Part shown: positions 1 to 10,807 of the stretch, in pieces
Numbering within the stretch: the first letter of the stretch is position 1
Layout: every line of letters begins with the position of its first letter
From: a virus
Strand: one strand, 5' to 3'
Virus record (IMG/VR): IMGVR_UViG_3300045988_043823
DNA: 10,807 nucleotides
Made by a program: the position numbers and the translations under genes
The notes under the pieces: model-generated
The model's input: the letters and a program-made list of their open reading frames with translations, nothing else
Database searches by the model: none
What the model was told of the DNA's origin: nothing

Positions 1-70
1 GATCTAAATATGCACTATCGCCCCCTTTTTAACGTTTCCCAACGCACTTTTAACACCGGCCAACACACTT

Positions 71-86
71 TGGCACGCTTTTTGCC
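71..86 (+). promoter_or_regulatory. Sigma-54 (RpoN)-type -24/-12 box 1, or an origin iteron
   Basis: TGGCACGCTTTTTGCC matches the consensus TGGCACG-N4-TTGCW. GG at 72-73 and GC at 84-85 have the canonical 12-nt offset. Confidence 0.35.
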
Positions 87-127
87 TGGGCCAATGCCAC
101 CATAAAAACAATGCTCCAAAATAAGTT

Positions 128-143
128 TGGCACGCTATTTGCA
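128..143 (+). promoter_or_regulatory. Sigma-54 (RpoN)-type -24/-12 box 2, or an origin iteron
   Basis: TGGCACGCTATTTGCA matches TGGCACG-N4-TTGCW at every position. GG is at 129-130 and GC at 141-142. Confidence 0.4.
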
Positions 144-175
144 TAGCCTAAATTTATTTTGAAATGTTTCACTTT

Positions 176-191
176 TGGCATAGTTTTTGCA
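176..191 (+). promoter_or_regulatory. Sigma-54 (RpoN)-type -24/-12 box 3, or an origin iteron
   Basis: TGGCATAGTTTTTGCA has GG at 177-178 and GC at 189-190 with the same spacing. It is immediately preceded by AAATGTTTCAC, an 11-mer shared with the 662-684 operator-like repeat. Confidence 0.35.
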
Positions 192-4336: not shown

Positions 4337-5467
4337 ATGAAGAAAGAAACAAATAAGAAAGAAACGATAAAATTTTACTCGCTCACCAACATATTAAACA
4401 AAAATGCAGATTATAACATAATATTTGGCGAGCGTTCGAACGGCAAAACGTACGCCACTTTGGCGTATGGCATTAAACGTTACATACAGACGGGCGAACA
4501 AATGGCCTATATACGTAGGTGGCGCGAGGATTTACGCGGCAAACGTGCTGAAAATCTGTTTGCTAACCACGTGGCAAACGGGTATATTGAAGAAGTAACA
4601 AATGGAGAATTTAACTCCGTATTTTATATTGGCGGTAAATGGTATCTTGCAAAATACGACCACGAAAAAAAGAAGTACGCACCACAAACTACACCGTTTT
4701 GCTATGGTTTTTGCTTATCAGAGCAAGAGCACGAAAAAAGTAGCAGTTACCCAAACGTTACCACGATTGTTTTTGATGAGTTTTTAACTCGTAGGTACTA
4801 TTTGCCCGATGAATTTATGTTGTACATGAATCTTTTAAGTACCATAATACGACAGCGCGACAACGTTAAAGTTTTTATGTTAGGTAACACAATAAACAAG
4901 TTTTGCCCCTACTTTAGCGAAATGGGACTAAAGCAAGTTACTAACATGGGCCAGGGCACTATCGATATATACAAGTTTGGCCAACATGGAGCAGTAGTAG
5001 CGGTGGAGTATTGCAGCACGATAGTAAAACAAAAAGCAAGTAACAAGTACTTTTGCTTTGATAATCAAAATCTTGAAATGATAACGGGCGGCAAATGGGA
5101 AATGGCCGCATATCCACATTTGCCCACGAAGTACAAACCAAATGAAGTGCTTTTTGTGTATTACATTGTATTCAACGAATATATTTTGCAGGGCAACATA
5201 ATACAGCACGGAAACGAAAACTTTACGTACATACACGTAAAGACCACCCCAATAAAAGACCCCGAAAACTCGCTAATATACAGCCTACAAATGAACGGAA
5301 AGCAAAACTACAAGCGCAAGTTAATAAGCAGCGCTACCTACATAGAGGCACAAGTAACAAAGTACTTTGCTACTGATAAAGTATTTTACCAAAACAACGA
5401 AGTTGGCGAAATAGTACGAAACTATTTAATGACCTCCGCACGTACTAACATAGTAAGTGTAAAATAA
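4337..5467 (+). CDS. DNA encapsidation (packaging) ATPase, phi29 gp16-like (376 aa)
   Basis: Walker A is IIFGERSNGKTYA, compared with phi29 VIGARGIGKSYA. GEQMAYIRRWREDL compares with GEQFIYVRRYKPEL. Walker B is SSYPNVTTIVFDEFLTR, compared with NAYPNVSTIVFDEFIRE. The phi29 sequences are from memory. Confidence 0.9.
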   Translation: MKKETNKKETIKFYSLTNILNKNADYNIIFGERSNGKTYATLAYGIKRYIQTGEQMAYIRRWREDLRGKRAENLFANHVANGYIEEVTNGEFNSVFYIGGKWYLAKYDHEKKKYAPQTTPFCYGFCLSEQEHEKSSSYPNVTTIVFDEFLTRRYYLPDEFMLYMNLLSTIIRQRDNVKVFMLGNTINKFCPYFSEMGLKQVTNMGQGTIDIYKFGQHGAVVAVEYCSTIVKQKASNKYFCFDNQNLEMITGGKWEMAAYPHLPTKYKPNEVLFVYYIVFNEYILQGNIIQHGNENFTYIHVKTTPIKDPENSLIYSLQMNGKQNYKRKLISSATYIEAQVTKYFATDKVFYQNNEVGEIVRNYLMTSARTNIVSVK

Positions 5468-5508: not shown

Positions 5509-5712
5509 ATGGATATAAATGAAGTTATACAAGTTATTTCAAATGTGGGGTTTCCTATTGGTATGTGCTTACTCGTGTTTTACTACATGACAAAACAAGA
5601 CACAAAGCACACAGAGGAAACAGAACATTTGCGTACAACTTTAGAGGAAAACACAAAGGTACTATCTGAACTAACAACTTTAATAAAAAACGTGTATGTC
5701 AAAGAAAGATAA
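5509..5712 (+). CDS. Small single-pass membrane protein, YvrJ-like (67 aa); possible holin or lysis-related protein
   Basis: VISNVGFPIGMCLLVFYYM followed by a charged helical tail resembles YvrJ-family proteins (...GFPI...YLL...) as I recall them. There is one predicted TM segment. The ORF overlaps the portal start by 17 nt. Confidence 0.6.
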   Translation: MDINEVIQVISNVGFPIGMCLLVFYYMTKQDTKHTEETEHLRTTLEENTKVLSELTTLIKNVYVKER

Positions 5713-6592
5713 TTTTTACTTGAAATATCAAGAGCAAATTAAAAGCAAGGACAAAAGCGTAAACAGCTATATTCAAAAAATGTTGGCTGTTTCTCAAGCA
5801 ATGTTTGTTTATACGGGGCTGCCCGAAACACTCCCACAAGTAGAACTTGAAACGCTTTTACAGACTAACGGCAATGTGTTCGTAACAAAGGTAAACGGGG
5901 ATTTATATGCGTTTACCGGTGGTTGGGGCGGTGTACCGGACGCGTACAACAGACCAACCGAATACATAGTTTCAAACACGTACTTACAACTGAATAAAAC
6001 GTATAAAATAGGTGTTGACGGGGTTCTGGTCAAAAATGATAGCGGAGCGAATAGTCTATTACCCATTTTTGGCAAGTATGGCGTTTTATGTGCTGATACT
6101 CTTTTGTCATTAAATACGTGTTCGGTATTGTCGCGTATTACAATGCTAATCAGTGCGAGCGATGACAAGACAAAGCAAAGTGCCGATGATTTTGTAAGTA
6201 AAATAATAAATGGAGATTTCTCGGTGATTGGCGAAAACGCATTTTTCAAGGGCGTTAACCTACAAAGCATTAACTCCCAAAGCGCGAACCAAATCGGCCA
6301 ACTAATAGAACTTTTGCAGTACTTCAAGGCCAGTGCATTTAACGAAATAGGGCTGAACGCTAACTACAATCTAAAGCGCGAGCGACTGAACACAAGCGAA
6401 GTGCAAATGAATGTGGACGCGTTAAACCCATACGTTGATAATATGCTACAAGAGCGCAAAAAAGCAGTAGACAAAATAAACGAAATGTTTGGTACTGAAA
6501 TAAACGTGGAACTTGGAAGTAGCTGGGCAATACGAAAAGAGGAAACAGAAAACGACAATGCGAAAATTCTACTGAATAAGAAACGGAAGTAA
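5696..6592 (+). CDS. Portal / upper collar connector, phi29 gp10-like (298 aa)
   Basis: The size matches gp10 (about 309 aa). Recalled gp10 blocks align: MFVYTGLPETLP..LETLL..NGNVFV with LFEWENLPPTIN..LEKSI..FGYVGF; AFNEIGLNANYNLKRERLNTSEV with [22 protein letters not shown]; and RKKAVDKINEMFGTEINVEL with REEACEKINELYGLNVKVKF. Confidence 0.85.
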   Translation: MSKKDNFYLKYQEQIKSKDKSVNSYIQKMLAVSQAMFVYTGLPETLPQVELETLLQTNGNVFVTKVNGDLYAFTGGWGGVPDAYNRPTEYIVSNTYLQLNKTYKIGVDGVLVKNDSGANSLLPIFGKYGVLCADTLLSLNTCSVLSRITMLISASDDKTKQSADDFVSKIINGDFSVIGENAFFKGVNLQSINSQSANQIGQLIELLQYFKASAFNEIGLNANYNLKRERLNTSEVQMNVDALNPYVDNMLQERKKAVDKINEMFGTEINVELGSSWAIRKEETENDNAKILLNKKRK

Positions 6593-6712
6593 CAGAAACA
6601 GACACCGAAACGGAAAAAGAAACGGATACAGAAACAGACACCGAAACGGAAAAAGAAACGGATACAGAAACAGACACCGAAACGGAAAAAGAAACAGAAA
6701 AAGAAAAGAAAC
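6592..6712 (+). repeat. Tandem direct repeat array: 36-bp unit x ~3 (two perfect copies plus 32 nt), built from 12-bp sub-repeats GAAACRGA-N4
   Basis: ACAGAAACAGACACCGAAACGGAAAAAGAAACGGAT occurs at 6592-6627 and 6628-6663, with a partial copy at 6664-6695. GAAAC(A/G)GA recurs every 12 nt from 6595 to 6691, with an extra copy at 6580-6587 inside the portal 3' end. The + strand carries a single T per 36-bp unit. Confidence 0.95.
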
Positions 6713-7282
6713 ATGAAAATAATTGACATCTACCCCGACCCACAAAACGGGCTATTCACAAAGGTTTTCAAGGATAATTTTGCGGAACAATACACGGCAA
6801 TTTTTGGAGACCTTGATAGTGTGGGGCTTGATACACTTGTGATTTTGGAGTATGGCGAAAGAGAAATGCTAAACACCATAACACAGGACAACGCCAACAC
6901 ATATGTTAAAAACGTCATCGCATTAAGTTTGCCAAATTGGGTAAAGGTGGCGAACGCGTACAACACAAAATACAACGTGTTAGAACCAACGCAAAAGACA
7001 ACCACAAAAACCAATAACGCCACAGAAAGCGAAAACAACACTAACACAAACGTATCATCAAACAAGCCATATAATGAAACGACTTTTGAGGAATACGACA
7101 AAGACAACAACACAAGCGACAAAACCCGTACAAATAAAACAGAAGTAACCGAAAGTGTAACGGGGCTAAATGGCAAGTCGGCCGTAGATGAGTTGCAAAA
7201 AGATATAGACTTTTCATTGAGAAATTGGAGAAAAAGCATTATCTTTGCCGTAATAAATGAAATAACAAAATCAATTTACTAA
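6713..7282 (+). CDS. Structural protein (189 aa); candidate lower collar (gp11-like head-tail adaptor/tube) or scaffold
   Basis: It lies between the portal gene and the capsid gene. In phi29 gene 11 follows gene 10, and the gene 7 scaffold precedes gene 8. Globular ends flank a T/N/K/E-rich central segment of about 60 aa that could form the extended beta-hairpin of a collar tube. The assignment is positional and compositional only. Confidence 0.4.
   Translation: MKIIDIYPDPQNGLFTKVFKDNFAEQYTAIFGDLDSVGLDTLVILEYGEREMLNTITQDNANTYVKNVIALSLPNWVKVANAYNTKYNVLEPTQKTTTKTNNATESENNTNTNVSSNKPYNETTFEEYDKDNNTSDKTRTNKTEVTESVTGLNGKSAVDELQKDIDFSLRNWRKSIIFAVINEITKSIY
7215..7247 (+). promoter_or_regulatory. Candidate promoter for the major capsid gene (ATTG-N21-TAtcTTTG)
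   Basis: TAtcTTTGcc at 7240-7247 lies 48 nt upstream of the ATG at 7295, inside the 3' end of the preceding ORF. A -33-like ATTG sits at 7215-7218. The TAyCTTTGC core is shared with the two other intergenic candidates. Confidence 0.4.
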
Positions 7283-7294
7283 AATACACGTAAT

Positions 7295-8467
7295 ATGAAA
7301 GTAAACCAGATTTACAAGCTACTTAACGACGTAACACAAGAGGTTTTAGGTAGCACCGAACTAGTGAATGAAGATTTGACGGGCCTGGTTGATTTGGGTG
7401 CAGAAGTATTCAACCAAAATGCCGTAGACAATTACGTTAAATCTTTGGTTAACCATATCGGTAAGGTAATCTTTGTAAACCGCCCGTATAGCGGCAAAAT
7501 TCCATCTGTGTTAATGGATAGTTGGGAGTTCGGAAGCGTACTCGAAAAGATAAATGCCGACATTCCCGAAGCAGAGGAAAACAAAACTTGGGATTTGGTA
7601 GATGGTCAATCGTACTCACAGGACGTTTTCCACAAGCCCGTAGTTACTGCAAAATTCTTTAATTCAAAGGTGACTTTTGAGGTGCCCGTATCTATCACAG
7701 AGCGACAAGTAAAGGAAAGTTTCAGCAACTCGGAACAACTCAACGCTTTTTTATCAATGATATATAGTGCGGTAGAAAAAGCAATCACCATCAAGACGGA
7801 TGCGCTAATCATGCGAACAATAAACAACATGATTGGTGAAACACTCATAGCAGACGCTACTGCATTCGGTAAGGATGGCTCAGAAGATTACACAAGCGCA
7901 TCTACTGCACGATGTGTGAACCTCCTTAAGTTGTACAACACACAGAAAGGCGCAACTTTGGCCGCTGATAAAGCAATTACCGACCCCGATTTCATTAAAT
8001 TCGCATCTTACAACATCGGTTTGTATAGTGACCGACTTGCAAGCATCTCGAGCGTGTTTAACATTGGCGGTAAGGCCCGTTTCACACCTAAAGAGAATTT
8101 GCATATTGTTTTGCTCTCGGAATTTGAAAAAGCCGCAAAGACGTACCTCTATGCAGATAGCTACAACAAAGACCAAGTGCTTTTGCCGAACGCTGAAACT
8201 ATCCCATTTTGGCAGGCGAGCGGCACAAAGTACGATTTTGCAAGTACATCACACATCAAAATCAAGGAGACAAACGGCAAATCTGTTGAGATTAGTGGGG
8301 TGCTTGGTGTTATGTTTGACAGAGATGCGTTGGGCGTTTGCAACCTCGACCGTCGCGTTACTACTAACTACAACGCAAAGGCGGAGTTCTTCAACAACTA
8401 CTACAAGTTTGATGCCGGCTATTTCAATGACACTAACGAAAATTTCGTAGTTTTCTTTGTTGCTTAA
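7295..8467 (+). CDS. Major capsid protein, phi29 gp8-like HK97-fold core (390 aa), without a C-terminal Ig-like domain
   Basis: The N-terminal block LGAEVFNQNAVDNYVKSLVNHIGKVIFVNR compares with recalled phi29 [30 protein letters not shown]. The C-terminal ...FFNNYYKF...NFVVFFVA compares with ...LYTNYYLHV...NAVAFV. The gene is followed by the strongest terminator in the genome, consistent with the most abundant transcript. Confidence 0.8.
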   Translation: MKVNQIYKLLNDVTQEVLGSTELVNEDLTGLVDLGAEVFNQNAVDNYVKSLVNHIGKVIFVNRPYSGKIPSVLMDSWEFGSVLEKINADIPEAEENKTWDLVDGQSYSQDVFHKPVVTAKFFNSKVTFEVPVSITERQVKESFSNSEQLNAFLSMIYSAVEKAITIKTDALIMRTINNMIGETLIADATAFGKDGSEDYTSASTARCVNLLKLYNTQKGATLAADKAITDPDFIKFASYNIGLYSDRLASISSVFNIGGKARFTPKENLHIVLLSEFEKAAKTYLYADSYNKDQVLLPNAETIPFWQASGTKYDFASTSHIKIKETNGKSVEISGVLGVMFDRDALGVCNLDRRVTTNYNAKAEFFNNYYKFDAGYFNDTNENFVVFFVA

Positions 8468-10410: not shown

Positions 10411-10443
10411 AGAAAGGCGGCAACTAATTGTTACCGTCTTTCT
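10411..10443. terminator. Bidirectional hairpin terminator straddling the ITR-R boundary
   Basis: AGAAAGGCGG (10411-10420) pairs with CCGTCTTTCT (10434-10443) as 10 bp with one G-U pair and a 13-nt loop. Moderately U-rich sequence follows on both strands. It lies 16 nt after the last + strand stop, and the stop codon of the minus-strand mini-ORF falls in its loop. Confidence 0.6.
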
Positions 10444-10490
10444 CTGTTTATTATCTCGCTTAACTCTCGTAAAATGTTTTTTGTTTCCAT
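10431..10490 (-). CDS. 19-codon mini-ORF (METKNILRELSEIINRERR*), created by the ITR copy of the ORF1 start
   Basis: The mirror of the ATG at 318 is at 10490-10488. The first 16 codons are ITR-encoded, followed by GAA AGA CGG TAA. It may be a by-product of ITR structure rather than a functional gene. Confidence 0.25.
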   Translation of the reverse strand: METKNILRELSEIINRERR

Positions 10491-10616: not shown

Positions 10617-10737
10617 TGCAAAAACTATGCCAAAAGTGAAACATTTCAAAATAAATTTAGGCTATGCAAATAGCGTGCCAAACTTATTTTGGAGCATTGT
10701 TTTTATGGTGGCATTGGCCCAGGCAAAAAGCGTGCCA
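10617..10737 (-). promoter_or_regulatory. Mirror copies of the three sigma-54-type boxes in ITR-R, facing inward
   Basis: These are the ITR images of 71-86, 128-143 and 176-191, at 10722-10737, 10665-10680 and 10617-10632 on the minus strand. Confidence 0.3.
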
Positions 10738-10807
10738 AAGTGTGTTGGCCGGTGTTAAAAGTGCGTTGGGAAACGTTAAAAAGGGGGCGATAGTGCATAT
10801 TTAGATC

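Follow-up and report, generated by a model that had tools for sequence, protein, structure and literature searches.

The virus record IMGVR_UViG_3300045988_043823 of IMG/VR (10,807 nucleotides [nt]; hereafter the window, by which we mean the whole stretch of DNA analyzed) is the complete linear genome of a protein-primed, phi29-like mini-podovirus of 10.8 kb. Each of its two inverted terminal repeats (ITRs; 366 nt, 100% identical between both ends) contains three inward-facing boxes with the -24/-12 architecture of promoters read by RpoN (sigma-54). These boxes appear to be real, selected copies of the RpoN element, of the subtype that lies upstream of groES and dnaK in Bacteroidales, and they recur at both ends of the genomes of an entire family of related phages. 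In our favored interpretation, in which we have moderate confidence from the sequence, they are sigma-54 promoter elements of the kind found at host chaperone genes: the sigma-54 holoenzyme of the host would bind them, and an activator, also from the host, would fire them. The element type itself is already known; new are its occurrence as tandem copies in the ITRs of a family of protein-primed phages and its relatedness to chaperone promoters of the host.

The three boxes of the left ITR lie on the plus strand at 71 to 86 (TGGCACGCTTTTTGCC; repeat unit at 69 to 94, with GG at 72 to 73 and GC at 84 to 85), 128 to 143 (TGGCACGCTATTTGCA; 116 to 151 with its upstream flank), and 176 to 191 (TGGCATAGTTTTTGCA; repeat unit at 174 to 199), exactly where an initial annotation made from the sequence alone had placed them. 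Their mirror copies in the right ITR are on the minus strand in the order 3, 2, 1, again facing inward (10617 to 10739; cores at 10617 to 10632, 10665 to 10680, and 10722 to 10737), which gives the six boxes per genome that had been counted. The GG and GC dinucleotides are offset by 12 nt in all three boxes, so that their description as exactly spaced holds within each box; it fails between boxes, which follow one another at 57 and 48 nt in the window, at 70 and 47 nt in the relatives L002 and L003, and at about 58 nt in a second clade of relatives (clade B; see below). Box 2 matches TGGCACG-N4-TTGCW at every position, as had been claimed for it, and boxes 1 and 3 depart from this sequence at one and two positions, respectively; all three show the arrangement by which sigma-54 promoters are recognized (GG at -24 and GC, or rarely GT, at -12, with 10 nt between them, in TGGCAYR-N4-TTGCW). 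The repeat unit of about 26 nt extends beyond the 16-nt core and reads TTTGGCA..T.TTTGC.T., and the opening of box 3, TGGCATAG, is also that of the Salmonella prpB promoter, TGGCATAGCCTTTGC.

The bipartite motif is rare enough for these copies to stand out: TGGCA-N6-TTGC occurs six times in the window against 0.12 expected and never outside the ITRs, in agreement with the earlier failure to find a further full match in the unique region. A genome-wide matrix scan, which the initial annotation had called for, was carried out with a sigma-54 weight matrix built from 29 intergenic Salmonella promoters supported by chromatin immunoprecipitation (Table 3 of PMC3844500). When scored leave-one-out, these training promoters range from 14.0 to 22.5 bits, with a median of 17.6 bits. 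With this Salmonella matrix, boxes 1, 2, and 3 reach 21.2, 22.0, and 19.4 bits, respectively, and fall inside the range of the supported promoters, and the next best site in the window reaches 10.2 bits. Among 200 shuffles of the genome, the median of the per-shuffle maximum was 10.9 bits, and the single best shuffle merely equaled box 3 (19.4 bits). Thus, the scores of the boxes are comparable to those of the top validated sigma-54 promoters; should the boxes act as such, transcription would be predicted to start at about 97 (box 1), 154 (box 2), and 202 (box 3). We also considered whether the boxes could be parts of Bacteroidota sigma-A promoters (TAnnTTTG with a TTTG 17 to 23 nt upstream), and this was ruled out, as the TTTGs within the boxes are spaced by only 11 to 12 nt. 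A TAAGTTTG overlaps box 2 but neither of the others, and it lacks a -33 partner. The true Bacteroidota-type sigma-A early promoter lies on the plus strand at 238 to 269 (-33 TTTG at 238 to 241 and -7 TACCTTTG at 262 to 269, with 20 nt between them), upstream of open reading frame 1 (ORF1), and is kept in relatives; the boxes all face inward upstream of it, as initially reported.

To place the boxes in an evolutionary context, we compared the window with its relatives. The nearest cultured ones are the ~11.5-kb Astrithrvirus group (Salmonella astrithr, Acinetobacter Phanie, and Pectobacterium DU_PP_III), which have the same gene order and a polB about 41 to 45% identical to that of the window. 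IMG/VR holds many further relatives, largely from human-gut samples, among which we distinguish clade A (L001 to L003 and L008 to L012; polB 81 to 93% identical to that of the window) and the large clade B (polB about 65% identical). We assembled a family set of 66 complete genomes (two ends identical over 40 nt; polB 65 to 93% identical to that of the window) and counted as boxes all sites within 450 nt of either end that scored 14 bits or more with the matrix. This comparison of related ITRs, also proposed at the outset, recovered 339 inward boxes versus 4 outward ones. There are usually two to four boxes per end (range, one to six), in arrays that lie about 66 to 190 nt from each genome end, and box 1 starts about 60 to 66 nt from the true terminus in both clades. 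The four outward boxes have a single origin: in L010 and L011, box 1 (about 60 to 95 nt from each end) is a full palindrome, TGGCACG-N5-TGCA-N5-CGTGCCA, which adds an outward site overlapping the inward one at TGCA.

Box cores have been retained where the flanks and the inter-box spacers have diverged with insertions and deletions (e.g., a 13-nt indel between boxes 1 and 2). In L008 to L012, the strict ITR is only about 100 nt long and spans box 1 alone, yet box 2 is still present at both ends, in differing flanks; at the right end of L012, it adjoins the stop codon of a convergent tail gene. Because box 2 is kept outside the strict ITR in these genomes, even at the gene-less right end of L012, the boxes appear to be selected at both ends, independently of ITR homogenization and of downstream genes. 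Across 121 distinct box contexts, TGGCA is invariant, and the variable positions are 5 (C/T), 6 (G/A), 7, 9, and -12, the last being C in 79, T in 40, and G in 2; substitutions are thus found mostly at positions that sigma-54 tolerates (Y, R, and the spacer). The boxes are absent from relatives that apparently infect other phyla, namely L004 and the Salmonella, Acinetobacter, and Pectobacterium phages. L004, which shows Firmicute-like signals, has unrelated iterons in the same place. Two additional sigma-54-type matches, both absent from the window, were seen inside clade B genomes: a recurrent TGGCAAGGAACTTGCAAG within the terminal-protein gene and, in a subset of the clade, a 17.5-bit site, TGGCACGAAATTTGCACC, that lies on the minus strand just past the end of the packaging-ATPase gene (e.g., L023 at 5586 on the minus strand, L030 at 5317, and L028 at 5296).

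The window genes lack Shine-Dalgarno sequences; this, together with the -33/-7 (TTTG/TAnnTTTG) type of its sigma-A promoter, indicates that the host is very probably a member of Bacteroidota. All 27 Bacteroidia genomes analyzed in an earlier study have rpoN, predicted sigma-54 promoters are enriched at Bacteroidota chaperone genes, and groES and grpE of Bacteroides thetaiotaomicron have been reported to be sigma-54 dependent (PMC12316311). We examined Bacteroidales groES (L174 to L187) and dnaK (L188 to L193) loci from metagenome assemblies. Every locus fetched has a TTTGGCAC-type -24/-12 element about 75 to 90 nt before the start codon, which reads TTTGGCACG[CG]TTTTCG[CT] at groES in several Bacteroidales (TTTGGCACACTTTTCGCA in L178) and TTTGGCACGGCATTTGTT, TTTGGCACGACGTTTGTC, or TTTGGCACATACTTTGCT at dnaK; these elements score 14.0 to 17.6 bits with the Salmonella matrix. 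The element is not a sigma-A -7 box, since several species have no TAnnTTTG overlapping it. A leading TT, a T-rich spacer, and C or T at -12 are common to the host elements and the phage boxes.

The likeness is closest for box 2. Positions 116 to 136 of the window (CCAAAATAAGTTTGGCACGCT) are identical over 21 consecutive nt to the Bacteroides groES promoter in L175 and L176, and over a wider stretch 28 of 33 positions, counted from the alignment, are the same. This identity includes 11 nt upstream of the motif, a match that was reached in none of 20,000 shuffles of the flank, and it points to Bacteroides as the host. A similar likeness links the inner clade B box, TTTGGCACGGTTTTTGTTATG, to TTTGGCACGGTTTTCGTTTATG, the groES promoter in L182, which represents another Bacteroidales lineage. 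Ahead of the host promoters, we observed TTGGCAG-N7-CTGCCAA palindromes, which have a CIRCE-like geometry, or repeats of CTGCCAA or TGTCAG; these are plausible candidate sites for a regulator of a sigma-54 heat shock regulon. Thus, the coupling to a host sigma-54 regulon that the initial annotation had offered as one of two readings is supported at the sequence level by the scores, the substitution pattern, and the likeness to groES and dnaK, and together these suggest that the phage has linked the ends of its genome to the sigma-54 machinery of the host.

Under the favored interpretation, the boxes would hold host sigma-54 RNA polymerase as stable closed complexes, and these would fire inward once an enhancer-binding ATPase of the host, of which the phage has none, becomes active. 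The left end, and with it the phage, would thereby gain stress-coupled transcription of a gene train whose recognizable genes all lie on the plus strand. Only a short terminated RNA would be expected from the right end of this genome: a terminator-like hairpin on the minus strand (10418 to 10436), immediately inside the right ITR, would end inward transcripts after a 19-codon remnant of ORF1. The boxes are also retained at gene-less ends, and their distance from the termini is fixed; binding or transcription by the polymerase at these places probably also aids a function of the ends themselves, such as origin opening.

Several observations weigh against this interpretation. Pfam searches found no AAA+ enhancer-binding protein (Sigma54_activat or other) in the phage, which agrees with what the initial annotation had stated, and the window has no copy of the TTGGCAG-N7-CTGCCAA palindrome of the host promoters, only a remnant, CCAAAATAAG. 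Without this host-type upstream element, activation is unexplained, and a host activator may act from solution or from other sites. The tandem sites (two to six, 48 to 70 nt apart) lie too close for productive holoenzymes to occupy all of them simultaneously. There is nothing to transcribe at the right ends of this genome, L012, and L001, and the early genes are already served by the sigma-A promoter. The sigma-54 dependence of the host groES and dnaK elements is itself suggested by one paper's statement and by motif scores. At the level of single bases, box 1 of L003 has TTGG at -12, and the general sigma-54 consensus does not demand the spacer residues T8, T10, and T11, which are invariant in the phage boxes. 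The invariant spacer Ts and the T at -12 of the inner clade B boxes had at one stage been taken as evidence against sigma-54; both objections were withdrawn because the host groES and dnaK elements share these features. In particular, the host groES promoters have the same spacer T-run, and T at -12 is also found in the strong natural promoters pspA and pspG.

The lack of an activator and its site, the close tandem copies, the sigma-A promoter, and the gene-less ends all feed the alternative that survives best, namely that host sigma-54, its holoenzyme, or a regulator of the chaperone regulon binds the boxes for a role in cis at the ends (origin opening or organization) or that the boxes act as decoys, soaking up sigma-54 as genome copies accumulate; in neither case would mRNA be the point. 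We regard this as possible, if rather unlikely. It accounts for the presence of boxes at both ends, with the first at a near-constant 60 to 66 nt from the terminus in both clades, for their retention beyond the strict ITR in L008 to L012 and at right ends that lack genes, and for the variation of box number from one to six per end. The iterons that occupy the same place in L004 suggest that end-near repeats are general in the group, and two near-consensus host parS sites in the window (see below) indicate that the phage already borrows host DNA-binding factors. However, a part for sigma-54 in replication is without precedent, the spacing of the boxes is neither constant nor helically phased, the Astrithrvirus relatives do without such repeats, and the strict inward orientation and the place upstream of the early genes suit promoters. 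A wider version of this idea, which we consider unlikely, is that a large family of gut Bacteroides mini-phages recruits the sigma-54 polymerase to both ends as a cis-acting end factor, either for origin activation or organization or for a titration of sigma-54 that reprograms the chaperone regulon, and that this forms, with parS, a module that senses the state of the host.

ITR repeats of protein-primed replicons commonly bind proteins encoded by the replicon itself. The boxes could accordingly be iterons for a phage protein that serves in origin binding, packaging, or regulation, with ORF1, ORF3, and ORF4 as candidates, and their likeness to sigma-54 sites would then be a coincidence or a deliberate competition; we consider this improbable. 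As regards position, the origin-iteron reading of the initial annotation stands: the repeats lie near both termini, are conserved among relatives, and are kept at the right end of L012 without a gene. ORF1 to ORF4, moreover, co-occur with the boxes: both clades have these ORFs, and neither L004 nor the Astrithrvirus relatives do, although this co-occurrence equally reflects the lineage distribution of the ORFs. The invariant spacer T-run would be at home in such a site. A dimeric binder would suit the palindromic box 1 of L010 and L011 and the palindromic versions of the motif in unrelated contigs (see below). What this reading does not deliver is the specificity, as a phage-specific binder would have to match that of sigma-54 by coincidence. 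The probability that a random iteron would score 19 to 22 bits three times over is very low, given that only 1 of the 200 shuffles reached 19.4 bits. Furthermore, the substitutions follow the degeneracy of sigma-54 sites, the same element, with flank identity, occurs at host groES and dnaK, ORF1 to ORF4 have no DNA-binding domain recognizable with Pfam or PHROGs, and the spacing of the units is neither regular nor helically phased, contrary to what would be expected of iterons.

The occurrence of the motif in unrelated DNA bears on the same point. A broader search for two boxes 30 to 60 nt apart recovered several viral contigs unrelated to the window. L093 has 14 TGGCAYR-N4-TTGCW motifs between 6500 and 8300, with free spacers and in intergenic positions, four of them in tandem 26 to 28 nt apart, and L125 is similarly dense in such motifs. 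L127 (5800 to 7860), L094, L126, and L112 carry convergent, palindromic versions (e.g., TGGCA-N6-TTGC-ATAT-GCAA-N6-TGCCA). Tandem arrays of perfect sigma-54-type motifs were also seen at bacterial loci, including L170, a Chitinophagales metagenome-assembled genome (MAG) (L169, 341 to 600; six motifs in 260 nt with variable spacers), and a Fibrobacter MAG (L171 at about 7600 to 7800 and L173 at 92 to 350; five or more units of about 68 nt); the L171 array faces into the 3' end of a gene that runs toward it. Within the fetched stretches, tblastn found no homologues of the small ORFs of the window near these unrelated arrays, which also speaks against iterons for an ORF product. As one bipartite specificity recurs in unrelated replicons without homologues of the phage small proteins, the recurrence suggests a reader that is universal among hosts, and sigma-54 is one.

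That the boxes are a neutral relic, a fragment of a host groES promoter captured into the ITR, duplicated, and carried along by ITR homogenization, is highly improbable: the 21-nt identity with host groES does suggest capture, and homogenized ITR copies do inflate the apparent conservation, but the core is kept across clades at 65% polB identity while flanks and spacers diverge with indels, box 2 persists at both ends beyond the homogenized ITR in L008 to L012, and inward boxes outnumber outward ones 339 to 4 in the 66 genomes.

Other elements of the ITR are distinct from the boxes. The degenerate fourth unit initially proposed at 46 to 57 proved to be part of a separate pair of 21-nt direct repeats on the plus strand (TTTTAACGTTTCCCAACGCAC at 27 to 47 and TTTTAACACCGGCCAACACAC at 48 to 68), which follow the pattern TTTTAAC...CCAAC.CAC, are kept in both clades, and are not sigma-54 boxes. 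T-tracts at about 26, 47, 68, and 79 are separated by multiples of about 10.5 nt, and this phasing suggests that the DNA between the terminus and box 1 is intrinsically bent. In clade B, a TTTAAC(A/G)TTT motif (TTTAACATTT) precedes the outer boxes by about 22 nt, so that the outer repeat units measure about 58 nt. Farther inward, the window has two near-consensus chromosomal parS (ParB/Spo0J) sites (TGTTCCACGTGGAACA at 640 to 655 and TGTTTCACGTGGAACA at 663 to 678), against none expected. Copies of the parS type are also found in relatives, two inside each clade B ITR and one, GTTTCACGTGAAAC, at 183 to 196 in L004. Such sites are known in phi29, and recruitment of host ParB may be a conserved trait of phi29-like phages.

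The outermost letters of the window are not of phage origin. GATCT at 1 to 5, mirrored at 10803 to 10807, is a remnant of an Illumina adapter, and the true terminus is AAATATGCA, beginning at position 6; its AAA start parallels the 5'-AAAGTA end of phi29. Adapter pieces in the contigs of relatives support this: in L001, CTCTTCCGATCT precedes AAATATGCA at the right end, L002 and L003 begin at AAATATGCA, a longer adapter is found on L041, and L077 has a Nextera end. The interior of the right ITR (10442 to 10490) repeats the sigma-A promoter together with codons 1 to 16 of ORF1, which continue as a 19-codon ORF that runs into the hairpin mentioned above. At the right end of clade B genomes, the ORF1 homologue is a real inward-facing gene, so the layout in the window looks like an extension of the ITR.

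On the plus strand, ORF1 (318 to 632) follows the sigma-A early promoter, and a 218-amino-acid (aa) product is encoded at 1493 to 2149, in the position expected for the terminal protein and with weak similarity to the equivalent gene of relatives. The genes for a phi29 Gp16-type packaging ATPase (4337 to 5467), a phi29-type connector (5696 to 6592), and a phi29-type major capsid protein (7295 to 8467) were also recognized on this strand. Between the connector and the next gene, a 12-nt tandem repeat (6579 to 6722) runs through eight overlapping registers and in another frame reads as an acidic ETDTETEK repeat. The connector is 298 aa long in the window versus 325 to 366 aa in relatives, and its tail may have been frameshifted in the window or may be made by frameshifting. 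No match was obtained when the entire window was compared with GenBank phages by megablast. Rfam searches gave no relevant match to pRNA or any other RNA in the window (none up to E = 5), and no phi29-type pRNA gene was found near the left end, where the single-strand fold of 6 to 215 is weak (z = -2.0).

A whole family of ~11-kb phi29-like phages, represented in many human-gut samples, thus keeps arrays of these boxes at both ends. Should the boxes fire, the phage would read the proteotoxic-stress state of its host; should they only bind polymerase, the phage would have adopted a host sigma factor for a function at its genome ends. In either case, the system is of small size, its sequence is complete, and it can be tested with Bacteroides genetics; through its sequence it also gives clean access to the sigma-54 chaperone regulon of Bacteroidota, as yet poorly understood, and to the TTGGCAG/CTGCCAA elements upstream in that regulon. 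To our knowledge, sigma-54 promoters are almost unknown in phage biology, owing to the need for a host ATPase activator. In the literature searched, sigma-54 boxes are not described for the terminal repeats of phages or for phages of the phi29 type, and a 2024 review of phi29-like phages makes no mention of sigma factors.

Among known systems, the closest are the Bacteroidales groES and dnaK elements, reported to be sigma-54 dependent (PMC12316311), which have the same extended sequence as the phage boxes, TTTGGCAC(G/A)-N-T-rich spacer-(T/C)G(C/T). The host promoters, however, are single, lie 75 to 90 nt before a gene, and are preceded by a palindrome or repeats, whereas the phage boxes are in tandem (two to six) next to the termini, lack the host-type upstream element, and at some ends have no downstream gene. 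The enterobacterial promoters of pspA, pspG, and prpB (PMC3844500) likewise share GG-N10-GC(T), TGGCAYR, and TTGCW with the boxes, which score as high as the best of them. Unlike the phage boxes, the enterobacterial sigma-54 promoters have known activators with mapped upstream sites.

Tandem early promoters for the host polymerase, A1 to A3, are also present at the leading genome end of phage T7. Like the boxes, they are several, face inward, and lie beside a genome end; they differ in being of the sigma-70 type, firing without an activator, and occurring at one end only. Phage phi29 has Spo0A boxes and parS sites, i.e., sites for global host factors, by which it senses or exploits the state of its host. 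The window also combines host-factor sites, including its two near-consensus parS sites, but its boxes differ from the phi29 sites in the factor concerned (sigma-54), in their location (the ITR), and in the phylum of the host. In adenovirus, the auxiliary origin in the ITR is bound by the host transcription factors NFI and Oct-1. The adenovirus ITR and the p6-binding DNA of phi29 (PMC4974454) resemble the boxes in that protein-binding DNA lies tens of nt inside both ends of a protein-primed linear genome. Protein p6 reads bendability with a 24-bp periodicity and no sequence, whereas the phage boxes are a sequence motif, with a replication role that is only putative. The NFI site is a palindrome, TTGGC-N5-GCCAA, whereas the phage boxes are asymmetric and direct. 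If the sigma-54 polymerase did serve as a cis-acting end factor, which on this analogy we would suggest with considerable doubt, the boxes would be the bacterial counterpart of the use that adenovirus makes of NFI and Oct-1.

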